A stretch of DNA of 64,000 nt from Candidatus Moraniibacteriota bacterium (GCA_963775955.1 CAVZKT010000002.1:7994-71993), one strand, 5' to 3'. Positions 6,084-63,430 are shown, numbered from the stretch's first letter. Made by a program: numbers and translations. The notes: generated by a model from the sequence alone, not told the origin.

Positions 6084-6333
6084 ATAGAACGTACTAGCCT
6101 TGCGCCAGCAACGTCATAAACACGATACTTATCTCGAGGCTCGTAACTCATAACTCATAACGATTCCGGGTCGGGTTACGGGTTATGCGTGTCGAGAGAA
6201 ATATTGTGCCTGTTACGCACTAGCAAAGACTGATTAATAAATTATTAAGTATTATGATCATATATTACTATGGGCATTTTGTCAAAAAGAAAGGGAGATT
6301 TTTAGTTTCCCGCACCTAATTTTCTTAGGTTTT

Positions 6334-8084: not shown

Positions 8085-8142
8085 AAATTTAGCTTAGTGC
8101 ATTATAACCATATCAAAGGAAGAGGATTTTGTCCAGGATGGT

Positions 8143-8320
8143 TTTACTTTTTCTTTCCGCAAGAAAAAGTAACAAAAAGAACTCTCAGCAGGACAAAATT
8201 TCCAAACAAATCCTACGCTCGTTCGCTAAAATTTTTGGTTGCCCCGAGACGGACCTAAAAATTTCTTGATGCTCTCTCACTTGAGTTTGTGGTTGGAAAT
8301 TTTGTATGCTGAAGAATTTT
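8143..8320 (+). repeat. ~190-bp long-hairpin repeat, copy 1 of 3
   Basis: CTTTTTCTTTCCGCAAGAAAAAGTAACAAAAAGAACTCTCAGCAGGACAAAATTTCCAAACAAAT... is repeated almost verbatim at 43452 and (more diverged) 46851. The left and right halves are imperfect reverse complements. Confidence 0.8.
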
Positions 8321-8351: not shown

Positions 8352-8451
8352 CCCCGTTAGAGTTTTAATATGAATTATGCGGGGATAAAGCAGTAATCTT
8401 TTTTGGTTTTTCAATATTAAATAAATTTAATTTTGTAAAACTCTAACGGGG
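8352..8451 (+). repeat. CCCCGTTAGA-type inverted-repeat element (16-bp perfect arms)
   Basis: CCCCGTTAGAGTTTTA at 8352-8367 and TAAAACTCTAACGGGG at 8436-8451 flank an AT-rich 68-bp core. The right arm abuts the pcrA GTG start. Confidence 0.8.
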
Positions 8452-10715
8452 TGGAAAACGACATTCTAAAAAATCTGAATCCGGCGCAGAGGGAAGCCGT
8501 GGAAACCACTGAAGGGGCGGTTTTGATCATTGCCGGAGCCGGCTCGGGCAAGACCAGGGCGCTCACGCACCGCGTGGCCTATCTGATCAAAGAAAAAAAG
8601 ATTCCGCCGCGAAATATTCTGGCGGTGACTTTTACCAACAAAGCGGCGCAAGAAATGAAAGAACGAGTGCGGGTATTATTAGATGTTAATAACCAAAAAC
8701 TAAAAACTAAAAACTACGAACTTCCAATAATGGGCACTTTCCATTCTATCTGCGCGCGGATATTGCGCCACGAAATTGAAAAATTGGGCTATAAAAAAAC
8801 TTTCAATATTTTTGACGACCAGGACCAACTGGCGACGATGAAAAAGGCGATGAAGGAAAGTGAGATGGACATGGAGCAATTTAAACCGCAGGCGATGCTT
8901 AATGCGATTTCCAAAGCCAAGAATGAACTGATTGACGCGGCGACTACAGAGAATCCATCGGCAGTTATTATGAAGAAACGGTGTCCAAGGCCTATATTGC
9001 TTACCAAAAAAAACTCAAAGAGCAAAACGCGCTTGATTTTGACGATATTATCATGCTCACCGTCCAATTATTCCGGAAATTTCCGGAAATTTTGGAAAAA
9101 TACCAGAATTTTTTCCGCTATATCATGGTGGACGAATACCAAGACACTAATCGCGCGCAATATACCTTGATTAATATGCTAGCCAAAAGGAACGGCAACA
9201 TCTGCGTCGTGGGCGATGACTGGCAGGGTATATATTCCTGGCGCGGAGCGAACATCCAAAATATCCTGGATTTTGAAAAGGATTATCCTAGCGCCAAAGT
9301 CATAAAATTGGAGCAAAACTACCGTTCCACGCAGAACATTTTGGATGCGGCCTATGGCGTAATTTCCAAAAATATCAACCGCAAGGACAAAAAAATTTGG
9401 ACCCAGAGCGCCAGCGGACAACTCATAACCTCCTATGAAGCCGGAGATGAAAGAGATGAGGCGGAATTTGTGGTGAAGGAAGTTTTGCAAGAGAGAGAAA
9501 AAGAAAAACACAAATTTTCCGATTTTGTAGTTTTGTATCGTACCAACGCGCAATCCCGCATCATGGAAGAAGTGATGCTTCAAAATTCAATTCCCTATAG
9601 GATAATCGGCGGAATAAAATTTTATTTGCGCAAGGAAATAAAAGACATTATCGCCTATTTGCGCCTCATTCAAAATTTCAATGACGCGGTATCGCTGGAG
9701 AGAATAATAAATGAACCCAAAAGAGGCATTGGAGAAGTTACGCTTAAGCATTGGGTTGAAACTTTCAAAAGAAAATAATATTGATCTGATTAATTGCGGA
9801 TTTACAAATCCGAAATCCGAAATCCTAAATCCGAAATAAATTCAAATCCGCCAACCGGCGGACAAAATTCAAAAATCTCGACTGGAAAATATTTTTAAGT
9901 TTTGTGATTTTATCAAAAGGATGAATGAGGCGATCCGCAAATTGCCGCTGACTGATTTTATGGAAAAAGTCTTTGCAGAGTCCGGGTATGAAAAATTTCT
10001 TTTGGACGGCACGGAAGAGGGAGAAATGCGGCGGGAGAATATCCGGGAGCTGCTGACAGTGGCCAAAAAATACACAGAATATAAAGGCGAAGAAGCCCTG
10101 CGGATGTTTTTGGAAGAAGTCGCGCTGGCATCTGACACGGACAATGTGAACCAAAACCTGGATGCCGTGCACCTTATGACGCTTCACAGCGCCAAGGGAT
10201 TGGAATTTAAAGTCGTTTTTATTGCCGGCCTGGAAGAAGGAATCCTGCCTCATTCCCGCAGTATGCTGGATCAGGGCGAAATGGAAGAGGAAAGGCGGCT
10301 GATGTATGTCGGCATCACGCGCGCCAAAGAAAAAGTTTATCTGTTGTTTACCAGCCAGCGCAATATTTTTGGTTCCACGCAAGTTAATCCGCCATCAAGA
10401 TTTCTGGATGATATACCGCCGCACCTTGTGCGGAATTTCCAATTTCCAATTTCCAATTTCCAAACAAATTCCAAATTACAAAATCAAATCCAAAAATTTC
10501 CCCTCACCCGTCCCGATATACATCAGGACACCCTCTCCCGAAAGGAGAGGGAAATACGGAATAAAAACACTTTTAAAGATGGTGATAGGGTAAAACACAA
10601 AATTTTCGGCGAGGGCCTAATAGTTTCCTCGCAAGGCGATACACTCACAATCGCTTTTTCCAAATCCGGGCTAAAGAAGCTTTCCGCTTCCATCGCGCCG
10701 CTTAAGAAGATTTAG
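8451..10715 (+). CDS. pcrA: ATP-dependent DNA helicase PcrA/UvrD (interrupted: frame changes near 8941 and 9765, in-frame TAA at 9837)
   Basis: Fragments 8451-9170, 8981-9778 and 9921-10715. Motifs AGAGSGKT, TFHSICARIL, VDEYQDTN, VGDDWQGIYSWRGA, LEQNYRST, TLHSAKGLEF, MYVGITRAKE. Confidence 0.9.
9806..9837 (+). repeat. tandem heptamer repeat (AAATCCG)x4.5 inside pcrA
   Basis: AAATCCGAAATCCGAAATCCTAAATCCGAAAT, followed by hairpin TCCGCCAACCGGCGGA. Confidence 0.8.
10432..10498 (+). repeat. tandem heptamer repeat (TTCCAAT)n and derivatives inside pcrA C-terminus
   Basis: GGAATTTCCAATTTCCAATTTCCAATTTCCAAACAAATTCCAAATTACAAAATCAAATCC, translated as RNFQFPISNFQTNSKLQNQIQ. Confidence 0.8.
10499..10552 (+). 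repeat. double-hairpin GC-rich element, copy in pcrA
   Basis: TCCCCTCACCCGTCCCGATATACATCAGGACACCCTCTCCCGAAAGGAGAGGG, same architecture as 25343-25390 and (inverted) 12796-12845. Confidence 0.75.
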
Positions 10716-11940: not shown

Positions 11941-12071
11941 GGGCGCTGTCAGGAGGGCATATTTTGCTGATCTTAAGCCAAAATAGCCTTTTATAAATTT
12001 TTTGATCTTCGACCATTTTCAATTGTGGTAACTTGGTGTATGATGAAAATGTAAATGTCGCACAATAAATT

Positions 12072-12150
12072 CTCGTAACTCGACTCTCATAACTCGCAAC
12101 AAATCGGACTGGAAATAAAATAGTGTCAAGTTGCGGGTTGCGAGAGTCGA
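12072..12150 (+). repeat. heptad-word hairpin (CGTAACT family) in the xerC-like 5' leader
   Basis: CTCGTAACTCGACTCTCATAACTCGCAAC ... GTTGCGGGTTGCGAGAGTCGA. The arms pair with G:U at the transition differences. Confidence 0.75.
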
Positions 12151-12157
12151 TAAATTT

Positions 12158-13110
12158 ATGATAATTAGAGATCTCAAAAACCAATTTCTGGAATACCTGG
12201 AGATTGAAAAAGGCAAGGCCGGGAAAACTATTGAGAACTATGGCCACTATCTGAATCGGTTTATTGGATGGTCTAAAGTTTTCGATCCCCAGGATATTAC
12301 CGAAGAAACCGTCAGGGGGTTTCGGGTTTATCTTAATCGCTACGAGGACAAAAAAGGGCGGAATCTCAAAAAAATAACCCAAAATTACTATATTATCGCT
12401 CTGCGCAGTTTTTTGAAATATTTGGCCAAAAAGGATATTAAAACGCTGCAAGCGGAGAAAGTGGAAGTGGGAAAAGTGGTCCGTAAAGAAGTGGAATTCC
12501 TGGAAGCGGAGGAAGTGGAGCGAATTTTGGGCGCGGCCGACGGGAATAGTTCCAAGGTTTTGCGGGACCGGGCGATGCTGGAGCTGCTTTTCTCATCCGG
12601 TCTTCGTGTTTCCGAACTCACCAACATTGATCGCGACAAATTGGATCTCAAAAACCAGGAATTTACGGTGCGGGGCAAGGGAGACAAAATAAGGCTGGTT
12701 TTTGTTTCGGACAGCGCCAAAAGAGCGCTGGAAAAATATCTCGATAAGCGGACCGATATTGATCCGGCCTTATTTATTAGAATTCAAGCCAAATTTCCTT
12801 CTCCCTTTGAGGGAAGAAGGTCGGCCGCAGGCCGGATGAGGGTCAGTTAGATCTGCGGCTCACCCCCCGCAGTGTCCAAAGAATGGTCAAATATTACGCG
12901 GCCAAGGCGGGCATCATAAAAGACGTCCATCCGCACACTTTGCGCCATTCTTTCGCCACAGATTTATTGATAAACGGCGCCGATATCCGCAGTGTCCAGG
13001 CCATGCTTGGCCATTCTTCCATTACGACGACGCAAATTTATACCCACATTACCAACCAGCAGCTCAAAGAAGTCCACAAAGCGTTCCACGCGAGAAGAAG
13101 AAAAAAATAA
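12158..13110 (+). CDS. tyrosine site-specific recombinase XerC/XerD-like (frame broken at inserted element about 12796-12850)
   Basis: N-terminal SAM-like domain ([18 protein letters not shown]), [20 protein letters not shown], then after the break [14 protein letters not shown]...[14 protein letters not shown]. Confidence 0.85.
12796..12845 (-). repeat. double-hairpin GC-rich element, inverted copy in the xerC-like gene
   Basis: CCTTCTCCCTTTGAGGGAAGAAGGTCGGCCGCAGGCCGGATGAGGGTC, the reverse-orientation equivalent of the tilS copy. Confidence 0.75.
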
Positions 13111-13133
13111 TCCGCCGCGGCGGATTATTTTTA
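13109..13133 (+). terminator. hairpin AATCCGCCGCGGCGGATT + T-run (xerC-like terminator)
   Basis: Perfect palindrome overlapping the stop codon, followed by ATTTTTAT. Confidence 0.6.
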
Positions 13134-18903: not shown

Positions 18904-21338
18904 TTACAATACCGTAATAGCGCTTACTTTATCCCCGGCTTGAGGTCGCATAACCCGCACGCCCTGGGTGGCGCGTCCGAGAACGGAAATATCTTTGAGC
19001 GGGATGCGGATGATTTGTCCTTTTTCAGAAGTTATAATCACATCCGTTTCAATATCATCAACATTTATGATGCTGGCGCCGATCAGTTTGCCGGTTTTGG
19101 CGGTGACGCTGGCGGTTTTTATTCCGGAGCCGCCGCGCTTTTGAATTTTATACGCTTTAAGGTCGGTTCTTTTGCCATATCCGTTTTCCGAGATGACCAA
19201 AAGTTGATTGCCTTTTTGATTTTTGAGAACTACATCCATGCCGACAACTTTATCTTCTTTCTTAAGCTTGATGCCGCGCACGCCTCCAGCTGTCCGTCCC
19301 ATCGGGCGCACATCTTTTTCTTGAAAATGGATGGCCTGGCCTTTTGAAGTCGTGATCACCGCTTCATCTTCGCCGCTCGTAGCTTCCACCCAACGCAGGG
19401 CGTCGCCCGTTTGCAGTTTGATGGCTAAGAGGCCAGAGCGCCTGACATTTTCAAATTCTTCCATAGCGGTTTTTTTGATGGTGCCCATTTCCGTGGCCAT
19501 CAGCATATATTTATAAGCGTCGTCTTTGCCAAAAGCCACAACCGCAGTCACAGATTCTTCTTGCGATAAGTTGTAAAAAATTGACGATTGACTGCCCTTT
19601 GGCCACGCGCGATGACGCTGGAATTTCATAAGCTTTGGTTTGGAAAACTTTTCCGCTATTGGTGAAAAATAAAAAATTGTCATGCGCCATGACGCCTAAA
19701 ACTTTTTTAATGGAATCTTCTTCTTTGGTGGCCGCGCCGATCACGCCCTTGCCTCCGCGGTGCTGGACTTTATACGCCGAAGGATCCATTCTTTTGATAT
19801 AGCCTTGTTCGGTAATGGTGATGATCGCTTCTTCATTGGGGATCAGATCTTCCTGCTTGAATTCGCCGACGCCGGATTTAATAATTTTGGTTTTTCTTTC
19901 ATCGCCGAATTTTTCTTTCACGCGCAAAAGTTCGTCTTTTACGATTCCTAAAATTTTCTTTTCGCTTTTCAAAATTATTTCCAATTCTTTAATTAACGCC
20001 AGTTTTTCCGCCAGCTCATCTTCAATTTTCTTGCGTTCAAGGCCGGCCAGTGTTTGCAATTTCATTTCCAAAATCGCGGTCGCCTGCTTGTCGGACAGCT
20101 TGAAATTTTTAATCAGATTTTTATGCGCGATTTCCTTGGTTTCGGATTTTTTAATAGTCGCGATAATCGCGTCAATGTGGTCCAGCGCTTTTTTGAGTCC
20201 CTCCAGAATATGCGCGCGTTCGCGCGCCTTGTCCAAATCAAATTGCGTGCGGCGGGTAACCACAATTTTTCTGTGCGCAACGTAATATTCCAGAATATCT
20301 TTTAAATTTAAAACGGTCGGCTCAATGCCGTCCACCAGCGCCAGCATATTGACGCCGAAATTTTTCTGCAGATCCGTCATGGCATAAAGCTTGTTGAGAA
20401 CTTTTTGCGGATAGGCGTCTTTTTTGAGTTCAATCACGATGCGCACGCCGTCCTTGTCCGATTCGTCGCGGATGTCGCGGATGCCCAAAAGTTTTCCTGT
20501 CATGCACCAGATCTGCCATCTTTTCAATCAAAGCCGATTTGTTGGTGGCATAAGTCATTTCGGTAATCACGATCTGAAAGGCGCCGGTTTTTGGCTCAAC
20601 AATATCCGCTTTGGCGCGCGTGAGAATTTTTCCGCGCCCGGTGCGGTAAGCTTCCAGAATATCTTTCTTGTTGTAAATAATTCCGCCGGTCGGAAAATCC
20701 GGCCCTTGGATGAATTCCACTAATTCTTCAATGGTTGCTTCGGGATTGTCGATGAGATGCGCTATCCCGTCCACCAGTTCGCTCAAATTATGCGGCGGGA
20801 TGTTGGTGGCCATGCCGACCGCAATGCCCATACTGCCGTTCAAAAGCAATTGCGGCAGATTGGCCGGCAGTACCGTCGGTTCCTGATGCTGGCCGTCAAA
20901 ATTCGGCACGAAATCCACCGTATTTTTTTCAATATCAACCAGCATTTCTTCGGCGATGGCGGAAAGCTTGGCTTCAGTATAGCGATAAGCCGCCGCGCCG
21001 TCGCCGTCCATGGAGCCGAAGTTTCCCTGGCCGCGCACCAGCGGATAGCGCAAAGAAAAATCCTGCGCCATGCGCACCATGGAATCATAAACCGCCACGT
21101 CGCCGTGCGGATGGTATTTGCCCAGCACTTCTCCGACGACAGTCGCTGATTTTCGGAATTTGGCGTTAGCGCGCAGTCCCGTGTTCCACATGGAATACAA
21201 AATTCGGCGGTGCACCGGTTTCAAGCCGTCGCGCACATCCGGCAGGGCGCGCGCCACAATAACGCTCATCGCGTAATCCAGATATGACTGCTGGACTTCC
21301 TCAACTATTTCCCTTTTAGTTATGCTTCCGATATCCAT
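18904..21338 (-). CDS. gyrA: DNA gyrase subunit A (two frame changes, about 20495 and about 19600)
   Basis: Fragments 20430-21338 ([37 protein letters not shown]), 19511-20527 and 18904-19683 (beta-pinwheel repeats). An extra A in GACAGGAAAA breaks [18 protein letters not shown]. Confidence 0.92.
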
Positions 21339-21347
21339 AAGATAAAA

Positions 21348-22294: not shown

Positions 22295-22540
22295 GGAGTT
22301 TACGAACTGCGAATTTAGTGAAATTACGAATCCGCCGCGGCGGACGAATATACGAATGGTTCTTATTTACATAAATAATTATAGCATCTCAGAACCGGTT
22401 TGTCGAGAGGCTTACGATAAAAACTTAGACTTGGAGGTCTAAGTAAGTATATTTTAGAATTTTGGCTTATTCAAAGTCTTTCCTAAAACCCCGTTCTAGG
22501 AAGTGGCTTGTTTAAGCCCTTTGGTTGTTCTAGCTATGTC

Positions 22541-22750: not shown

Positions 22751-22798
22751 ACATAACTAATTTTATGGGAAATATACTTAGATAAACTGGCGGAAGAA

Positions 22799-24188
22799 GT
22801 GGACAAGCTCACGGAAGAAAAACCGAAGGCTGCCAAAAAATCTTCCACGGCAAAAAAGAAAGTAACAGAAGAAACAGTGGAAGAAATTTCGCCGATGGCC
22901 AAGCTTCTGGAAGGATCGGATGTGAGATTTCCTAATCTCGGCGATGTGATTGAAGGAAAAGTTATTGAAGTGGGGACTAACGCCATTTATCTTGACATTG
23001 AGCCGTTTGGCACAGGGATCGTTTTAGGGCGGGAAATTAAAGACGGCATGGGGACTGGAAAACTTAAAATTGGAAATAAGGTTACGGCGACCATCACTGA
23101 CTTGGAAAATGAGGACGGTTATATTGAACTTTCCATCCGGGAGGCTTCTTATGAAAAGGCCTGGGAGGACTTGGAAAGCAAGAAAGATACTCAGGAAAAA
23201 GTGGCCACCAAGGTTTTGAGCGCCAATAAAGGCGGACTTTTGGTGGAAATCAACGGCATTTCCGGGTTTTTGCCGGTGTCCCAGCTTTCCAGCAAAAATT
23301 ATCCGCGCGTGGAAGACGGCGACAAAAATAAAATTCTAACTTTGCTCAAAAAATTGGTCGCGCAGGAATTGGAAGTGCGCATTTTGGATGCTGACCGCGA
23401 AACGGAAAAACTGATCGTCAGCGAAAAAGCCGCGCAAAAAGAAAAAGATCGGGAAGTTATTTCCGGACTTTCAATCGGCGATGTGGTTGAGGGAGAAGTC
23501 AGCGGAGTGGTTGACTTCGGCGCTTTTGTGAAATTTTTTCCGCTCCAACGCCGATACGGCTAATGTGACTGAAGAAAACAAATTGGAAGGCTTGGTGCAT
23601 ATTTCCGAACTGGCCTGGCAGCTGATTGAAAATCCGCGCGATATCGTCAAAGTCGGGCAGAAAGTCGGCGCGCAAATTATCGGGCTGGAAAATGAGAAAA
23701 TTTCCCTTTCCATGCGGGCGCTGGAAAAAGATCCGTGGAGCAAGCTGGAGTATAAAGTCGGAGATGTCGTCAAAGGAACCGTGCACCGCATCAATCATTT
23801 CGGCGCTTTCGTTTATCTCAATAAGGACATCCATGGCCTGGCCCATGTGAGCGAAATGGGCGAACTGTTTCCCGGTAAAAATATCAACGAACTCATAAAA
23901 GCCGAAGGCGAATATTCCTGGAAAATTCTTTCCATTGAACCGAAAGAGCACAGAATGGGACTGGTTTTGGTAACCGGAAAAGTGGAAAAGTCCGCCAAGG
24001 CGGAAAAACCGGCCAAAGAAAAAGCTGCAGAAATTAAAAAAGAAATTAAGGCCGAAAAGAAAGTAGAAAAAAAGGCCAAAAAACCGGTCAAAGCTGTAAA
24101 AGTTAAAAAAGAACCGTCCTCCTCCGCTAAAGCTTCGGCGGATAAAAAAGAAAAGAAAGTTCCAAAAAAGAAAGAGGCTAGGAAGTAG
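22799..24188 (+). CDS. rpsA: 30S ribosomal protein S1 / multi-S1-domain protein (one frameshift at about 23545)
   Basis: Four S1 repeats (GDVIEGKVIEV, GGLLVEINGISGFLPVSQL, GDVVEGEVSGVVDFGAFVKF, GDVVKGTVHRINHFGAFVYL). A T6 run in AAATTTTTTCC shifts the frame. Lys-rich tail. Confidence 0.85.
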
Positions 24189-25081: not shown

Positions 25082-26108
25082 ATGAGAAATTTAGTTAAAA
25101 CAATCCAAAATACGGCGTTTCAACAGGGGCTTTGGCAGAAAGGGTCAAGGATTATTTTAGGTGTGTCAGGCGGGCCGGACTCGGTTTGCCTGTTGGATGT
25201 GATGGCAAAAATCGCGCTGAAATATGATTTGGAACTGATTGTTGCGCATGTAAATTACGGGTTGCGCGGGAAAGATTCAGAGAAAGATAAAGAGTTTGTG
25301 AGAGAACTGGCAGAGAAATACGGAATTGGAATTGAAGTTTTGCACCCTCATCCGCCCTTCGGGCACCTTCTCCCTAAAAAGGGAGAAGGGGGTTAGGAAA
25401 ACTCGTTCAGAGAACGAGTTACGTTTGATTCGTTACAGATTTTTTGAAAAAGTTCGCCAGGAAAATAAATTTGATTCCATTGCGGTGGCGCATAACGCCG
25501 ATGACCAGGTGGAAACATTTTTAATGCGCGTTATTCGCGGATCCGGCCTCGCGGGACTTTCGGCGATGAAATACAAAAATAATCCGCCGCGGCGGATCAT
25601 CCGCCCGCTGCTGGGAATTTCGCGAAAGGAGATTCTGAAGTATTTGAATAAAACGAATAGAACTTATCGGACGGATAGGACAAACAAGGAAAATTTATTT
25701 TTGCGGAATAAAATCCGAAACCAGCTGATTCCGTATCTGGAAAAAAATTTCAATCCTCAGATTAAAAAAACAATTTTTAGTTCAGTCGGTTCAATTGCCG
25801 AAGACGCGGATCTTTTGGAAAAAATCGCGGAAGAAGTTTATGGGACGGATAGGACAAATAAGACGGATAAAGCAAGTAGTTTGTCTGTTAAAAAATTGAT
25901 GGCTCTGCATCCGGCGTTGCAAAGAAGAATAATTTTAAAAGCCATTTGCAAAGTAAAAAGGGATCTGAAGGACATCGACGCGGCGCACGTGGAAGAAATT
26001 TTGAAAGCGCTTAAAAGCACTAAGGGCAAACGCCAAAGCGTGGCATTTAAAGGGTTGAAATTGACACGCATTGGTGATAAGGTTATAATAACAACTCATA
26101 GCACATAA
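25082..26108 (+). CDS. tilS: tRNA(Ile)-lysidine synthetase (frame change next to an inserted element, about 25335)
   Basis: PP-loop GVSGGPDSVCL, then ...IRYRFFEKV...VAHNADDQVETFLMRVIRGSG...IIRPLLGISRKEI. Confidence 0.88.
25343..25390 (+). repeat. double-hairpin GC-rich element, copy in tilS
   Basis: CACCCTCATCCGCCCTTCGGGCACCTTCTCCCTAAAAAGGGAGAAGGGGG, with hairpins GCCCTTCGGGC and CCTTCTCCC/GGGAGAAGG. Confidence 0.75.
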
Positions 26109-26138
26109 CACGTAACACATAACATATAACATAATAAA
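26097..26138 (+). repeat. tandem heptads CATAACA/CGTAACA/CATAACA/TATAACA/TAATAAA abutting the ftsH ATG
   Basis: Period-7 phasing read directly at 26104-26138. Overlaps the tilS stop. Confidence 0.75.
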
Positions 26139-32207: not shown

Positions 32208-32279
32208 GTCCCCATAGTTCAATGGATAGAACGAGAGACTCCTAAGCTCTAGATCCACGTCCGATTCGTGGTGGGGACA
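32208..32279 (+). tRNA. tRNA-Arg(CCT)
   Basis: GTCCCCA-TA-GTTC...loop CTCCTAA...CCACG-TCCGATT-CGTGG-TGGGGAC-A. Unusual TCCGA T-loop and an A:G at pair 31:39. Confidence 0.75.
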
Positions 32280-32318
32280 CACTTTGACTCGCTTCACTTG
32301 TTCAGTGCAAGCAAAAAA

Positions 32319-33852
32319 ATGATCAAAAAAATTCCAACTCAAGTCATTGAAGTTTTACAAAAACTGGAAGAATCAGGCTTCGAGGCTTTTATCGTGGGCG
32401 GATGCGTGCGGGATTTGCTCACATTGTGGTGAGCCTGTGAACCAAAAGACTGGGATGTAGCGACTAATGCCAAGCCGGAAGAAGTGCAAAAAATATTCCC
32501 GGACAGTTTTTATGAAAATGAATTTGGAACGGTCGGAGTGAAAGTAAAGCCGTTTATTAAAAATGGAAATCCGAATCGTGAGCATGACGTGATAGAAGTA
32601 ACCACCTATCGCATTGAATCGAAATATTCCGACAAGCGCCGGCCGGATAAAGTTGAATTTGCAAAAACATTAGAGGAAGATTTATCAAGAAGGGATTTTA
32701 CCATCAACGCGATCGCATTAAAACTCGTAACTCATAACGCACAACTCGACACCCGAAGAGGAAAAAATAGCTACGAGCTACGAGCTATGGGTTACGAGAT
32801 CATTGATCCATATGATGGTCAGAAAGATATTAAGAAAAAAATAATCCGCGCAGTGGGTGACCCGCATGAAAGATTTGATGAAGATGCTTGCGGATGATGC
32901 GAGCGGTGCGGTTTCACGCGGAGCTGGGATATAAAATTGAAAAAAATACTTTTGAAGCCATTAAAAAAATATAGCCGGGGATTTAAAACACATTGCTCTT
33001 GAAAGAATAAAAGACGAACTGGCCAAAATTATATTATCCGACAATCCATGCTGAAGGCATTGATATGCTGCATAAAACTAAATCTTCTGGAATATATTAT
33101 TCCGGAATTGGAAAAGGGCGTGGGCGTGAAACAAAACCGCCATCATATCTATACGATATACAAACACAGCATTTTATCTTTAAAACATTGTCCTTCGCAA
33201 AAAATTGGAAGTGCGCTTGGCTGCGCTTCTGCATGACATTGCTAAGCCGCAAACCAAAAGAGGCGAAGGCGAATATGCGACTTTCTATAACCACGATCAT
33301 GTGGGTGCGCGGGTGGCGGCCAAAATTCTTGAGCGTCTGCGTTTTTCACGTGAAACAATTGAAAAGGTGAAACTTCTCGTGGATAATCATATGTTTTATT
33401 ACAATCCGGAAGAAGTGGGAGCCAGTTCCGTCAGAAAATTAATTCAAAAAGTCGGCTTGGAAAATATGAAAGATTTGATTGATGTGCGCATTGCCGATCG
33501 TTTGGGTTCGGGCGTGCCGAAGGCCAAGCCGTATAAATTGCGCCACTTGGAATATATGATTGAAAAAGTTTCCCACGATGCCATTTCCGTAAAGATGCTA
33601 AAAATCAACGGCAATGATCTGATGAAAGAATTAAATTTAAAACCCGGTCCCAAAATCGGCGCGATTCTGGATGTTTTGCTCTCGGAAGTTATTGAAGATG
33701 CTTCCAAAAATAATCGCGAGCATCTTTTAACGCGCGCTAAAGAATTGGATAAGGAGGATTTGAAAAAACTCCGCCAGATGGCGAAGGTAAAGATTGAAGA
33801 GAAAAAAGAAGAGGAAGACAAGGAAATTAAGAGAAAACATTGGGTGAAGTAG
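32319..33852 (+). CDS. cca: CCA-adding enzyme / poly(A) polymerase family with HD domain (5-6 frame changes)
   Basis: Pieces: MIKKIPTQVIEVLQKLEESGFEAFIVGGCVRDLL / PKDWDVATNAKPEEVQKIF...RDFTINAIAL...IIDPYDGQKDIKKKIIRAVGDPHERFDEDA / LRMMRAVRF.. / ...LAALLHDIAKP...YNHDHVGA. Confidence 0.85.
32724..32798 (+). repeat. 75-nt heptad-word hairpin inserted in frame in cca
   Basis: CTCGTAACTCATAACGCACAACTCGAC...AGCTACGAGCTACGAGCTATGGGTTACGAG encodes VTHNAQLDTRRGKNSYELRAMGY between the conserved RDFTINA and IIDP motifs. Confidence 0.8.
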
Positions 33853-34129: not shown

Positions 34130-34230
34130 CATAAAATTGGTGCGGGGCAGGTTGCAGGGGTCAGTGGTCCGAGTCCGCTAGTGACCACAAATACTAAAAA
34201 CCAAATACAAAAAACTAAAAACTAACCAAA

Positions 34231-34846
34231 ATGGCTTCGCAAGTTTCCCACATAATTTACGCCCGCAAATATTTCGAAAAAAATCCGGCTTTGCCTAATT
34301 TTGAAGATGAATTTATGCTGGGCTGTGTTTTTCCGGACATCCGCCGGATTGACGAAAGTATAAAAAGAAAAGACACGCATCGCTGTTTTTCGCCGCTGGA
34401 TTTGAATTTTTCAGGACTTTCTCCGTTCCAGGCCGGCTGGAAATTTCATTTGTATTGCGATATGAAGCGGGAGGAGATTTTAAATAAATATAAATTTTAT
34501 GAAATTCCCGGAACTGCTGATTTTTGGCACCAGTCAGCCAAACAACTGGAAGATGAAATTATTTATGAAGAGTATAATAATTGGGAAAAAGTCGTGCATT
34601 ATTTCAATAATGTTCCAAAGATAGAAATAGGCATAGGATGTTACACATGAAACTTTCCAGCTGTGGTATGCGATAATCGCCAAATATATTGAGAAAAAAC
34701 CGGACAACAAATCAGCGCATATTTTTTTATCAAAACAACTGTCATGGGCGGAAAAAGCCGACGATATAGTCAAATCAGTTGACAATTTGCGCAAAAATGA
34801 GAGAGTTATAGGGATACTCAGGAAGGTGAAGGATGAAATATTATAG
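34231..34846 (+). CDS. hypothetical protein (one frameshift near 34645)
   Basis: ORF 34231-34650 continues as HETFQLWYAIIAKYIEKKPDNKSAHIFLSKQLSWAEKADDIVKSVDNLRKNERVIGILRKVKDEIL in another frame. Confidence 0.5.
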
Positions 34847-35146: not shown

Positions 35147-35217
35147 CGGGATATAGTATAGTGGTAGTACGCGCGATTCGGGTTCGTGAAGTCCCAGTTC
35201 GATTCCGGGTATCCCGA
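35147..35217 (+). tRNA. tRNA-Pro(CGG)
   Basis: CGGGATA-TA-GTAT-AGTGGTA-GTAC-G-CGCGA-TTCGGGT-TCGTG-AAGT-CCCAG-TTCGATT-CCGGG-TATCCCG-A (one A:C in the T-stem). Confidence 0.8.
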
Positions 35218-35449
35218 CATCGAAAAATTTAACGGGGTGAAGGTGGGTGTAGACCGGGTTCGATTCCCGGCATCCCGACCGAAAATTTAACAGGGTGAAG
35301 GTTCGTGAAAACCGGGCTCGCCCCGCGCCATTTCTCGGGATAATTGTGGTTTTATTAGGCATTAAGGCGAAGCCGCTTCGCTTTAGTTCTGATGAATATC
35401 ACAGATTATGTTTGGAAATGGTGCGGGGTGAAATTCCCGGCATCCCGAC

Positions 35450-37933: not shown

Positions 37934-38181
37934 CCTGGATAGCTCAGTTCCGCCAAGGGCGGACAGGGTTCGAGCACACGACCCCGCACTAAAATTTTGC
38001 CGAGTTAGCTCAGTGGTAGAGCACACGACTGAAAATCGTGGTGTCCCCAGTTCGATCCTGGGACTCGGCACATAAATGGCAAAATTTAGTACGGGGCAAG
38101 CTGAAAATTTTACCCCGCACCAATCCGCCGCGGATTTGGTGTCGGGGCCTTGCGTGCCCAGTTCGACTCTGGGATCTGGCA
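37934..38181 (+). other. interrupted tRNA-Phe-like gene enclosing intact tRNA-Phe(GAA)
   Basis: CCTGGATAGCTCAGTT[CCGCCAAGGGCGG]...GAGCACACGAC | CCCGCACTAAAATTTT | tRNA-Phe | AAAATTTAGTACGGGG CAAG CTGAAAA [TTTTACCCCGCACCAATCCGCCGCGGATTTGGTGTCGGGG] CCTTGCGTG-CCCAG-TTCGACT-CTGGG-ATCTGGC-A. Confidence 0.5.
37999..38070 (+). tRNA. tRNA-Phe(GAA)
   Basis: GCCGAGT-TA-GCTC-AGTGGTA-GAGC-A-CACGA-CTGAAAA-TCGTG-GTGTC-CCCAG-TTCGATC-CTGGG-ACTCGGC-A. Confidence 0.9.
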
Positions 38182-39562: not shown

Positions 39563-39841
39563 ATTTAAAACAAACACTTTCTCTCATAAACCCAGTTCAA
39601 ACCCCAGAAGTATCCGCCTCGGGCGGAACTACGGGGTAGGCTGTATGAACCCCGGTAGCAAATCCGCGGCGGATTGCTACAGGGTAAACTTCCCAGCTCA
39701 AAAATAGTCCAAAACACCCTTTTTCAAGCCGAAAATCCTACCCGGGGATTTTTTGGTTTTTATGGCTTAAATCAGCCTAAAACAAAAAGCGGGAGAAATC
39801 TGTATGGCTTAAATAAGCCAAAAAGTCGAATCGGCCTTTTA

Positions 39842-42566: not shown

Positions 42567-43394
42567 TTATTTTGAATCCCTTAATTTTTTTAGAAGTTTT
42601 ATGTCCTCCTCCACTTCCGGCCATTCGGTTTCGCAGAGCATGTCAATATTATTTTTTTTAGCGAAGGCGGCGATGTTTTCAAAAGCTTTGAGGCCGATTT
42701 TACCTTTGCCTATGTGTTCGTGGCGGTCTTTATTGGAACCGCAATCAGATTGGCTGTCGTTGGCGTGGATGAGTTTTATATTTTCAATCCCAATGTCTTT
42801 GTCAACTTTTTTAATTGCAGTTTCAAAATCCCGCCAATCATATCCTGATGCAAAAGAATGCTGGGTGTCCAAGCAAATGCCGGCTATGGCGGGGCTTTTC
42901 ACGCCGTCAATAATTTCTTTCAATTCTTTCAAATCATCACCGATAATTTCTCCCGCGCCGGCGCTGTTTTCCAATAATAATCTAGTGCTTCCGGAATATC
43001 CTTCCAAAGTTTTTTTGAGCATCTCAATGGTTTTTTTTATGGCTTCTATTTGACCAAGATCTTTGGCAGTGCCAATGTGGGTCATGACATATTTGGCGCC
43101 GAGGAGGCTGCCTCTTTCCAGTTCATCGCGGATAGTTTTTACAGATCCATAGCGAATGCGGCTATTAGCAGAAGCCAGGTTGATATAGTAGGGGGTGTGA
43201 ATATAGACATCTCGTAACTCGTAACTCGTAACTCTTAACTTAAATTCATGAATTAATTCAGGAGTTAACTCTGGCGCTTTGCCGCCCTGGGGCGCGCGGG
43301 TGAAAATTTGAATGACTTCGCATCCTAAAGCATGCCCGTTCTTAGGGGCGTTCCAAATTCCGCCGGCGATGGAAACATGACAGCCGATGTGCAT
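42567..43394 (-). CDS. nfo: endonuclease IV
   Basis: IGCHVSIAGG, HTPYYINLAS, ENSAGAG, CLDTQHSFASGYD, HANDS. Contains the (GAGTTAC)x3 repeat encoding LRVTSYELRD. Confidence 0.88.
   Translation of the reverse strand: MHIGCHVSIAGGIWNAPKNGHALGCEVIQIFTRAPQGGKAPELTPELIHEFKLRVTSYELRDVYIHTPYYINLASANSRIRYGSVKTIRDELERGSLLGAKYVMTHIGTAKDLGQIEAIKKTIEMLKKTLEGYSGSTRLLLENSAGAGEIIGDDLKELKEIIDGVKSPAIAGICLDTQHSFASGYDWRDFETAIKKVDKDIGIENIKLIHANDSQSDCGSNKDRHEHIGKGKIGLKAFENIAAFAKKNNIDMLCETEWPEVEEDIKLLKKLRDSK
43211..43239. repeat. tandem heptamer CTCGTAA/CTCGTAA/CTCGTAA inside nfo
   Basis: CTCGTAACTCGTAACTCGTAACTCTTAAC. Confidence 0.8.
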
Positions 43395-43451: not shown

Positions 43452-43630
43452 TTTTACTTTTTCTTTCCGCAAGAAAAAGTAACAAAAAGAACTCTCAGCC
43501 GGACAAAATTTCCAAACAAATTCTGCGTTCGCGAGCTAAAAGTTCACGGCTGCTTCCGCCAGGGGCGGAATCAAGGAACTTTTTTAACGCTCACTCGCTT
43601 GAATTTCGGGGAAATTTTATAGGCTGAATG
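43452..43630 (+). repeat. ~190-bp long-hairpin repeat, copy 2 of 3
   Basis: The first about 75 nt are near-identical to 8143-8217. Apex differs (TCCGCCAGGGGCGGA). Confidence 0.8.
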
Positions 43631-46835: not shown

Positions 46836-46850
46836 AAATATTTTATTTAA

Positions 46851-47040
46851 CTTTCTTTGGCCGCAAAGAAAGTTACAAAGAAACTCTCGAGCAGGCGAAA
46901 TATTCTAACAAATTCTGCGCTCGTTCGCTAAAATTTTTGGTTGCCCCGCTCCTCGCCCGTAGGCTACGGCCGAGGGGCGGACCTAAAATTTTTTAACGCT
47001 CTCTTGCTTGAATTTGTAATAGAATATTTTGCACGCTCGA
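46851..47040 (+). repeat. ~190-bp long-hairpin repeat, copy 3 of 3 (most diverged)
   Basis: CTTTCTTTGGCCGCAAAGAAAGTTACAAAGAAACTCTCGAGCAGGCGAAATATTCTAACAAATTCTGCGCTCGTTCGCTAAAATTTTTGGTTGCCCC... Confidence 0.75.
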
Positions 47041-57538: not shown

Positions 57539-57597
57539 AAGATATCCTCGCCTTATGATTTTTCTAAAAACTAATTAATTATATAAAGTAAAAATAT

Positions 57598-59709
<2,112 letters not shown>

Positions 59710-59723
59710 TATAAAGTTTTGTT

Positions 59724-61184: not shown

Positions 61185-61364
61185 AATAAAAAACAGCCCC
61201 GAAGGGCTATTTCCGACCACGTTCCTATGCTGGATGTCCCAGCCACACCACCATCCGGTGATAGTTCAGAATACAGGTCTTTGTGCTTATAATACTAGCA
61301 TAACTAAAAAATATTTCAAGTTAAATTGTCCACAGCCTAAAATATGGCTTAAATAAGGAATTTT

Positions 61365-62679: not shown

Positions 62680-62815
62680 TCAAAAATCCAAAATTCAAAA
62701 TCTCAAATTCCAAATAAATCACAATGACCAAAATCAAAAATTTTAAACTGTTTTGAATTTAAAAAATTCGAATTTGGAATTTATTTAGGATTTGTAATTT
62801 ATAATTTGTAATTTT
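62680..62815 (+). repeat. low-complexity word hairpin in the tig-clpP spacer
   Basis: CAAAAATCCAAAATTCAAAATCTCAAATTCCAAATAAATC ... GAATTTGGAATTTATTTAGGATTTGTAATTTATAATTTG. Confidence 0.7.
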
Positions 62816-62829
62816 TTAATTCATTTGAT

Positions 62830-63430
62830 ATGAATAAAAATAATATAGTTAACCAATATCTAATTCCCACAGTCATTGAAAAAACCACCTATGGCGAACG
62901 CGCTTATGATATTTATTCGCGCCTGCTTAAAAGACCGGATAATTTTTCTAGGCGGGCCGATTGATGATCTGGCGGCCAACAGCATCATCGCCCAGCTTTT
63001 ATTTTTGGATTCGCAGAACAACAAAGAGGATATCAAAATTTATATCAATTCTCCGGGCGGATCGGTGACGGCGGCGCTGGCAATTTATGACACGATGCAG
63101 TATGTGAAAGCGGACGTAGCCACGATTTGCATCGGCATGGCGGCTTCGGCCGCGGCTCTTCTGCTTTCGGCCGGAGCCAAAGGCAAGCGCAATATTCTTC
63201 CCAACGGAGAAGTGATGATCCACCAGATTATGGGCGGCGCGGAGGGGCAGGCGACGGATGTGGCGATCCACGCCAATCATATTTTAAAAATCAAGCAGAA
63301 GCTGAATGAAATTATGGCTAGGCATACCGGCCAGCCGGTTTCCAAAGTGGAAAAAGACGCCGAACGGGACTATTTTATGAGCGCCGACGAAGCCAAAAAA
63401 TATGGGATTGTGGATAGGATTATCAAATAG
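62830..63430 (+). CDS. clpP: ATP-dependent Clp protease proteolytic subunit (one frameshift near 62927)
   Basis: [34 protein letters not shown] / [12 protein letters not shown]...[18 protein letters not shown]...[11 protein letters not shown]...MIHQ. An extra A in an A-run. Confidence 0.92.

Follow-up and report, generated by a model that had tools for sequence, protein, structure and literature searches.

BoxC, a short repeat of Escherichia coli on which earlier work is said to have been carried out by Bachellier in the 1990s and by Hoyne and Maher in 2000, has to our knowledge had neither a function nor a mechanism of spreading assigned to it in 25 years and has been regarded as an intergenic enterobacterial curiosity. 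Holder et al. 2015 described the E. coli BoxC repeat, also called the potential intrastrand triplex (PIT) or TMECO repeat (PMC4666352). The published pattern is CCCTCNCCC-N3-6-GGGNGAGGG-N3-GGGNGAGGG, and triplex formation was demonstrated in vitro by circular dichroism and nuclear magnetic resonance (PMC4666352). TMECO repeats are always intergenic in E. coli K-12, fall into two types and often form inverted pairs; no function or mobility is known for them, they are associated with local small insertions and deletions (indels), and no promoter, terminator or regulatory role was found for the repeat in E. coli (PMC4666352). Here, we report on a GC-rich element of about 50 nt which lies inside three genes, tilS, pcrA and a xerC/D-like gene, of a 64,000-nt stretch of DNA (hereafter the window) from Candidatus Moraniibacteriota bacterium (GCA_963775955.1 CAVZKT010000002.1:7994-71993), a host from the Candidate Phyla Radiation (CPR). 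Judged from the order of its sequence blocks, this element is a hairpin-linker variant of the BoxC/PIT/TMECO class.

Other repeats serve as points of comparison. Rickettsia palindromic elements (RPEs), reportedly described by Ogata et al. in 2000, are AT-rich, approximately 100-150 bp long and confined to Rickettsia. The REP, BIME and REPIN repeats are species-specific and mobilised by RAYT transposases. From yeast mitochondria, GC clusters and the elements called 'byp' are known; byps interrupt the reading frame and are bypassed by the ribosome.

Results

Using a regular expression for the architecture of the element, we found exactly three copies of 46-53 nt on both strands of the 64-kb window, at the places reported in an earlier note on this DNA. 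Copy A (T-type, 25344-25389, plus strand) lies inside tilS and has the order CCCTCATCC-G-CCCTTCGGG-CA-CCTTCTCCC-TAAAAA-GGGAGAAGG, with box1 (CCCTCATCC) at 25345-25353, hairpin 1 at 25354-25364, box2 (CCTTCTCCC) at 25366-25374, the loop TAAAAA at 25375-25380 and the arm GGGAGAAGG at 25381-25389. Copy B (C-type, 10500-10552, plus strand) is located in frame inside pcrA (PLTRPDIHQDTLSRKEREI) and reads CCCTCACCC-G-TCCCGATATACATCAGGA-CA-CCCTCTCC-CGAAA-GGAGAGGG; its box1 (CCCTCACCC) spans 10501-10509, hairpin 1 10511-10528, box2 (CCCTCTCCC) 10531-10539 and the arm GGAGAGGG 10544-10551. The third copy, C (T-type, 12797-12842, minus strand), resides inside the xerC/D-like gene, the mRNA of which carries the G-rich strand, and consists of box2 (12797-12805), the loop (12806-12810), the arm GGGAAGAAGG with an extra A (12811-12820), hairpin 1 (12822-12834) and the complement of box1, GGATGAGGG (12834-12842), the reverse complement being CCCTCATCC-GGCCTGCGGCCG-A-CCTTCTTCC-CTCAAA-GGGAGAAGG. 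Common to all three is box1 (CCCTCAYCC) followed by a G, a variable hairpin, a spacer of 1-2 bases (CA in copies A and B but A alone in copy C) and a second hairpin, the arms of which are box2 (CCYTCTCCC) and GGGAGARGG around a loop of 5-6 nt (TAAAAA, CGAAA and TTTGA, i.e. 6, 5 and 5 nt, in copies A, B and C, respectively). Hairpin 1 is GCCC-TTC-GGGC in copy A, an imperfect hairpin of 18 nt in copy B and CGGCC-GCA-GGCCG in copy C.

None of 300 simulated windows, generated by a first-order Markov model with the same dinucleotide transition frequencies, contained a match to the element, and a profile hidden Markov model built from copies of other phyla only returned the same three sites of the window and no others (E = 3.6e-9, 3.7e-9 and 1.6e-5). 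The double hairpin was recovered as the minimum-free-energy fold of all copies as single strands, with box1 left unpaired and with z-scores of the fold of about -4 for copies A and B and -3 for the element strand of copy C. Thus, the copies in the window are real and non-random, and both their coordinates and the double hairpin in each of them are as the earlier note had proposed.

The triplex search published for E. coli covered loops of 1-6 nt only (PMC4666352) and would therefore miss the hairpin-linker form. A BoxC pattern built from the 9-mers of the window matched 4,905 of 5,426 complete E. coli genomes at a median of 9 places, with no annotated feature underneath among the matches listed. 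An actual E. coli copy reads CCCTCACCC-CGG-CCCTCTCCC-TGA-GGGAGAGGG-TTA-GGGTGAGGG and thus has both the blocks and the block order of copy B, the hairpin of the window being replaced by a linker of 3 nt.

Box1 is the mirror image of box2, a feature characteristic of sequences that form triplexes. GGRTGAGGG of the G-rich strand can align in antiparallel orientation with the purine arm GGGAGARGG, all nine triples being allowed ones (G.G-C, A.A-T, T.A-T); for the C-rich strand, the pyrimidine motif is matched at eight of nine positions. When single-stranded, the G-rich strand would fold into a hairpin plus a purine-motif triplex. A pattern scan of one genome per species gave at least 120 loci, with 163 matches and 157 distinct copies among the loci listed. 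In these 157 copies, box1 position 7, box2 position 3 and arm position 7 were T-T-A in 98 cases, C-C-G in 54 and other in 5, so that box1 position 7 covaries with a base pair of hairpin 2, in the triplex register, in 152/157. The covarying states match a T.A-T versus a C+.G-C (or an A.A-T versus a G.G-C) triple. The linker between box1 and box2, 11-20 nt long in the window and 8-24 nt (the range allowed by the pattern) in the 157 copies, forms a hairpin in 139 of them, and 96% of the 119 distinct linkers were more stable than their own shuffles (mean -8.1 vs -2.4 kcal/mol).

The matches listed in the species scan come from about ten phyla and comprise Alpha- and Gammaproteobacteria, Geobacterales, Thermodesulfobacteriota, Acidobacteriota, Planctomycetota, Verrucomicrobiota, Armatimonadota, Chloroflexota, Binatia and Saganbacteria. 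IMG/VR contigs predicted to be viral or prophage also carried the pattern, often as inverted pairs, in at least 120 cases (including L209-L288), and copies in Xanthomonas (L022), Pseudoxanthomonas (L029), Rhodanobacter (L036) and Devosia (L044) share an identical 30-nt core with copy A. The earlier note knew of no description of the element in this lineage; given that the pattern is shared by about ten phyla and that the blocks of E. coli BoxC are identical in order, it is not a lineage-specific element. In the flanks of 154 copies there were no conserved positions beyond a C at -1 and, thus, the unit is the 42-56-nt element itself.

With regard to genomic location, 56 of 57 annotated rows from Rhizobium, Shinella and Sinorhizobium replicons had no gene under the match, the plasmid gene table being incomplete. 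The exception is a plasmid of Shinella sp. WSD5-1 (L208, 1400-1560), on which the gene for the branched-chain 2-oxoacid dehydrogenase E2 (dihydrolipoamide acyltransferase; …PLPSLQRGEG…LRADEG…PTPSSGPSGHLLPAGEKGK…) contains two inverted elements in frame within its flexible inter-domain linker. Hence, CPR are not the only hosts in which the element is translated inside a tolerant linker. The copies of Moranbacteria, three of three in the window and all orthologous copies, lie inside open reading frames (ORFs). A metagenome scan with a TilS alignment revealed no further element-bearing locus among the matches listed, which were mostly distant TilS genes. Rfam contained no family for the window or 12 element-bearing loci at the gathering threshold, nor for 25300-25430 by E-value, chance hits having E >= ~4. 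Literature searches on the 9-mers gave only unrelated eukaryotic papers, and those on CPR and RPEs no usable description.

In order to compare the three insertion sites, we used DNA of the orthologous loci from independent ENA, JGI and Logan assemblies (L121, L202/L203, L204, L206 and L207); L121 forms one contig with L329 and stems from a close relative with a GyrA of 91-98% amino acid identity to that of the window. Intact orthologues carry the element in frame in tilS (L121, L204 and L202), xerC (L206) and pcrA (L207). The tilS element of L121, CCCTCATCCG-CCCCGATGGTCATCGGGG-CACCTTCTCC-CTAAAAA-GGAGAAGG, is read in a single open frame (…LLPHPPRWSSGHLLPKKEKDVRK…; PHPP..LLPKKEKD), and that of L204, CCCTCATCCG-CCCTACGGG-CACCTTCTCCC-AAGG-GGAGAAGG, in a frame other than that of L121 (…KSLIRPTGTFSQGEKGVM…; SLIRPTGTFSQGEKG). 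The TilS protein P0001 shows a mixed reading that begins in the L121-type frame and finishes in the L204-type frame (…CPHPALRATFSQKREKG…), and in the tilS element of L202 box1 is duplicated. The xerC gene of L206 is read in frame through the opposite strand of the element (IQTKSPSPLKGEGGQRPDEGILRL), and the element in pcrA of L207 occupies the same place and the same frame as in the window. Translation of the same nucleotides uses different frames and both strands, with 9-mers that hardly vary, and conservation therefore concerns the DNA or RNA and not the peptide. A conserved peptide motif was considered and rejected on these grounds. The peptides of tilS and pcrA, the similarity of which had been pointed out in the earlier note, are indeed similar, but this reflects the same nucleotides being read in one frame, which in tilS is the downstream frame (TLIRPSGTFSLKREKG). 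An example of an element-spanning peptide is HLLPKKGEGVRK.

Loci without the element were found as well. The tilS gene of L205 has an empty site, 'VLNPKNTKATEN', with flanks nearly identical to those of the filled L121, and L329 lacks the element in both pcrA and xerC, the xerC site being occupied by a different hairpin with a stem of 12 bp. The reading of the element as an insertion, as proposed in the earlier note, is thus supported. Its expectation of a length divisible by 3 did not hold for tilS and xerC, and most boundaries are unsharp: alignments of filled and empty sites, inspected for clean boundaries and target duplications, gave a clean boundary only at the 3' side in pcrA (…GGAGAGGG|AAATAC…), and the empty tilS site (24 nt) cannot be derived from the filled one (75 nt) by simple excision.

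By homology searches, the window was assigned to Candidatus Moranbacteria (Patescibacteria/CPR), and the identities of the host genes were confirmed by Pfam. The gene for the tRNA-Ile lysidine synthetase, tilS (25082-26108, plus strand), is distributed over frame 2 (25082-25396) and frame 0 (~25395-26108), and the protein called for it in the public record (P0008, on a contig of 360,084 bp) is a C-terminal TilS fragment. The pcrA/uvrD-type helicase gene (8451-10715, plus strand) consists of three frame pieces (8451-9170, 8981-9778 and 9921-10715), and the gene for the xerC/D-like tyrosine recombinase (12131-13110, plus strand) of frame 2, up to a stop at 12848-12850, and frame 1, from ~12844. 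According to Pfam, copy A falls between positions 65 and 74 of the PP-loop profile, copy B in the linker between UvrD_C and the C-terminal Tudor domain of pcrA, and copy C between positions 98 and 104 of the Phage_integrase profile. In alignments of 30, 120 and 59 orthologues, all three sites were hypervariable linkers in Moranbacteria, in agreement with the previous suggestion, made for tilS and pcrA, that the element sits where these families vary. At the tilS site, some orthologues have a short form without insert ('LNPKNxKATEN'), some an in-frame element and some unrelated inserts. In an AlphaFold2 model of the repaired TilS, the element residues form a coil between a strand (83-87) and a helix (110-127), with a predicted local distance difference test score (pLDDT) below 50 for residues 90-105, so the element-encoded segment is predicted to be disordered.

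We also observed other small repeats in these genes. A second family of perfect palindromes, AATCCGCCGCGGCGGATT, occurs at 25575-25600 (in tilS), 13107-13128, 22318-22348, 38099-38147 and 39650-39698 of the window; the copy inside tilS is in frame and adds 'PPRR', a 3-residue insert present only in some orthologues (P0004, P0009 and P0016), and the remaining copies look like terminators 3' of genes. AT-rich low-complexity repeats, AAATCCGAAATCC / AATTTCCAATTTCC, are found at 9800-9846 and 10434-10488 in pcrA and at 62684-62843 in an intergenic region. Those in the pcrA linkers are translated as 'NFQFPISNFQTNSKLQNQIQK', with related 'SKIQN' peptides in the orthologues P0242, P0253 and P0287, and one of them coincides with the pcrA frame break at 9780-9900. 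In other Moranbacteria, the same xerC and tilS sites hold a different hairpin with the stem AAAGCCGAGCTT…AAGCTCGGCTTT and the peptide KKPSLKTGKSSAL / ILKPSFRKSENSALG. This hairpin is present in the xerC linker of L329 (3090-3160), in the XerC proteins P0121-P0133, P0138, P0168 and P0176, and in the TilS proteins P0007, P0011, P0013, P0021 and P0065. More insert types at these sites are LQRGTTSKIQEANRRSDL and KRGTTALDQNDQKRSDL. The linkers of xerC and tilS seem to receive small palindromes in general.

The frame changes in or beside the element that had been noted in tilS and the xerC-like gene are present in the sequence. The tilS gene switches from frame 2 to frame 0 inside copy A, the upstream frame reading HPHPPFGHLLPKKGEGG through the copy and ending at a TAG at 25394, and the xerC-like gene switches from frame 2 to frame 1 inside copy C, with a stop TAG at 12848. 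Removal of one G from the G5 run at the 3' edge of copy A (25388-25392) restores an intact, L121-like TilS (...KKGEGVRKTRSENELRLIRY), for which L121 itself reads ...AAGGAGAAGGATGTAAGGAAG in one frame; the position of the indel is ambiguous because the T4 at 25338-25341 or hairpin 1 fit equally. The xerC copy has 40 nt in the window vs 38 nt in the intact L206, the surplus being an A in the arm and a C ahead of hairpin 1. As a property of the element, however, the frame changes did not stand, since breaks are pervasive elsewhere. In pcrA, two frame breaks lie away from copy B (near 8940 and at 9780-9900). Compared to L121, gyrA (18907-21347) is broken twice by single-base insertions (near 19568 and 20499), rpsA (22757-24185) once (near 23544) and the homologue of a 204-aa L121 protein (34219-34843) once (near 34636). 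The gene for the CCA-adding enzyme, cca (32259-33849), is split over two frames, and that for an H+-pyrophosphatase (57592-59711) is in at least six frame pieces. Altogether, the 64 kb contain at least 14 frame breaks, several of which hit indispensable genes, and therefore the assembly must contain consensus indels. The assembly resembles an unpolished long-read consensus. According to our own calculation, the elements cover about 150 nt, or 0.23% of the window, yet harbour 2 of the at least 14 breaks, where a uniform error would predict ~0.03. GC-rich structures of this kind are either hard to read and polish or truly prone to indels. The most likely origin of the frame breaks in tilS and xerC is an error-prone assembly whose consensus indel errors cluster at these GC-rich, hard-to-read structures. 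Since the length of the element in tilS and xerC is not divisible by 3, translational bypass and an intron were also considered; both were rejected, as the element is read through in intact orthologues and frame breaks abound in other parts of the window. In programmed bypass, the frame is interrupted in all functional copies; the orthologous copies are in frame and uninterrupted.

The window contains some further repeats and RNA features. An intergenic sequence of ~200 nt is present in three copies of 66-91% identity (8142-8300, 43452-43620 and 46844-47030), one of them upstream of pcrA; it starts with a hairpin (CTTTTTCTTTCCGCAAGAAAAAG), ends with a promoter-like TTGAAT…TATGCT, and could be a shared leader, promoter or small RNA. 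The region 61211-61279 on the minus strand matches the DUF3800-IX RNA of Rfam (48.8 bits, above the gathering score of 36.8). The tRNA-Pro gene at 35147-35218 is followed by two repeats of ~50 nt resembling tRNA 3'-halves (35224-35273 and 35282-35331), which could represent fragments of tRNAs or the scar of an integration. Short tandem heptamer-like repeats, CGTAACT / CATAACT, occur in both orientations at 6131-6161, 12070-12100, 26093-26123, 32715-32800 and 43209-43240, the one at 26093-26123 spanning the tilS stop and the tilS-ftsH spacer. Between 51245 and 53537, four tandem paralogous segments (a 159-nt repeat with 69-74% identity and a spacing of 578-788 nt) indicate a small tandem gene family.

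Discussion

We consider it probable that the three sequences belong to a structural repeat of the BoxC class which sits in disordered protein linkers, where it is read through by the ribosome, and which is maintained for its nucleic acid structure. They would be copies of a short DNA repeat of non-coding type in which the 3-nt loop that joins the Hoogsteen block to the duplex is replaced by a variable hairpin. In the compact genomes of Moranbacteria, copies within genes would survive only in the length-variable, disordered linkers of housekeeping proteins; as such linkers tolerate any stop-free peptide in frame, the copies are simply translated. What is maintained would be the three 9-mers in their mirror and complement relation together with a hairpin of free sequence, and not the peptide. 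The element would spread as DNA, and structures of this type would make their sites prone to indels. More tentatively, and with less conviction than for this core of the proposal, one may go further and regard the hairpin-linker BoxC as one structure-selected family, a hairpin plus a helix of nine triples, which extends, almost unchanged in its nucleotides, over about ten phyla and also occurs on the IMG/VR contigs, and which in the gene-dense genomes of CPR may have colonised linkers and, through its non-B DNA structure, act as an indel hot spot there, in which case it would cause the hypervariable length of the linkers and some of the frame breaks would be real.

Several observations weigh against the core of the proposal. 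In vitro, a triplex was shown only for the E. coli form, and in vivo dimethyl sulphate footprinting in E. coli detected no stable triplex (PMC4666352). The covariation could mark two subfamilies, the T- and C-type, rather than selection for a triplex. The frame of the xerC copy demands two extra bases or one missing base, and the enrichment of breaks in the elements means that random error alone is no explanation; the indels there could be real. The census of the element within this genome covers the 64-kb window. No mobilising gene, terminal inverted repeat or target-site duplication was found for the element, and no transposase among the ORFs scanned in a partial ORF census of the window; mobility is thus deduced only from the distribution of the copies and from their presence or absence between relatives.

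Other explanations for the conserved sequences differ in what they take to be selected. The element could be a cis-acting structure selected by the host, e.g. a pause site of transcription, replication or translation, an mRNA-stability element, or a recombination and indel hot spot that diversifies linkers. The strong conservation of the structural features across phyla, the location of copies between domains and the hypervariable linker length at exactly these sites would fit this idea, as would the fact that the mRNAs of tilS and pcrA represent the pyrimidine-motif strand, which is triplex-capable as RNA (PMC4666352). However, the element is found in genes in both orientations, close relatives lack it at these sites, other lineages have unrelated hairpin elements there, and no regulatory role was found in E. 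coli (PMC4666352), so that we regard host selection as unlikely. Selection of a peptide motif (PSP..GEG or LIRP..TFS..EKG) with a function at the protein level could account for the similar peptides of tilS, pcrA and orthologues, but is very improbable in view of the different frames among tilS orthologues, the opposite strand in xerC, the predicted disorder of the segment and the overwhelmingly intergenic location of the sequence in Rhizobium, Shinella and E. coli.

The frame breaks and the proteobacterial sequence invite two more explanations. If the breaks were real, the element might act as a recoding signal at which ribosomes shift frame or hop, for which T4 gene 60 and 'byp' of Magnusiomyces mitochondria are known examples. 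A GC-rich, hairpin-forming element of ~50 nt in an AT-rich genome, a stop soon after it in the incoming frame in both tilS (TAG 25394) and xerC (TAG 12848), and the enrichment of breaks in the elements all resemble such a signal. Against it, the element is read without interruption in intact orthologues, the reading frame is preserved across the pcrA copy, at least 12 further breaks of the window, including the gyrA insertions found in comparison to a 91-98% identical protein, occur without an element, the two breaks need different shifts (+1 and +2/-1), and no matching take-off and landing codons were identified; we give recoding very little credence. The identical 30-nt core that copy A shares with copies from Xanthomonas, Pseudoxanthomonas, Rhodanobacter and Devosia might point to a chimera or contamination in which proteobacterial reads were joined into a CPR contig, but this is hardly conceivable for an element of ~50 nt with CPR gene sequence on both sides, which occupies the same sites in the independent ENA, JGI and Logan assemblies. 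The BoxC-class repeat in disordered linkers remains the explanation that we prefer.

The hairpin-linker form is nearly identical from Proteobacteria to CPR and was overlooked by the published triplex search. A three-way covariation fitting a base triple represents rare comparative evidence for selection on triplex geometry, and the copies studied here demonstrate that such an element can live inside essential genes and be translated in any frame. For metagenome-assembled genomes from long reads, frame breaks within such elements should not be taken for biology without read-level support. With the copies collected here, comparative analyses can address which agent copies such elements and whether protein linkers are shaped by non-B DNA.

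Compared to RPEs, which the earlier note had brought up, the likeness is real in several respects: in both cases, short palindromic repeats lie in frame in housekeeping ORFs at surface or variable positions, are translated and tolerated, and are present or absent between relatives, orthologues without the insert included. Membership in the RPE family is not supported, as the element is GC-rich, ~50 nt long, has a mirror repeat of the triplex type and occurs across phyla; it is set apart from RPEs by description only, and the relation would be one of functional analogy, not of family. With REP, BIME and REPIN repeats, the element shares that short GC-rich hairpins often form inverted pairs and that structure is in part kept over sequence, whereas here also the sequence is kept across phyla, the third block with the mirror repeat has no REP counterpart, and no RAYT was seen in the examined parts of the window. 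The hairpin-linker form is abundant in intergenic regions of Rhizobium, Sinorhizobium and Shinella, and large palindromes catalogued there as Rhizobium-specific intergenic mosaic elements (RIME) or Sm-repeats may correspond to it; the papers searched contained no RIME sequence. The mitochondrial GC clusters and byps are likewise rich in GC, form hairpins and enter the coding part of a compact, AT-rich genome, but the element described here is translated in intact orthologues and resides in bacteria instead of eukaryotic organelles.

The closest agreement is with BoxC. Both have the three 9-mers CCCTCACCC, CCCTCTCCC and GGGAGAGGG in one order with the same single non-mirror position, copy B carrying the blocks CCCTCACCC, CCCTCTCCC and GGAGAGGG, and copies A and C being T-type with the covarying change. 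The window loops of 6, 5 and 5 nt lie within the 3-6 nt of the first BoxC loop, and two sequence types, frequent inverted pairs, a length of ~40-55 nt, local indel variability and the lack of an associated transposase are common to both. In contrast, the second loop has 3 nt (TTA or CCG) in BoxC and is here a hairpin of 8-24 nt with compensatory variation; the T-type (CCCTCATCC / CCTTCTCCC / GGGAGAAGG) dominates, and the hosts belong to about ten phyla including CPR. The copies of the window and their orthologues lie in ORFs, whereas those of Rhizobium, Shinella and E. coli are intergenic. As far as block order and base complementarity can tell, the element thus is a member of the BoxC/PIT/TMECO class which is novel in its hairpin linker, its location within ORFs and its CPR host.

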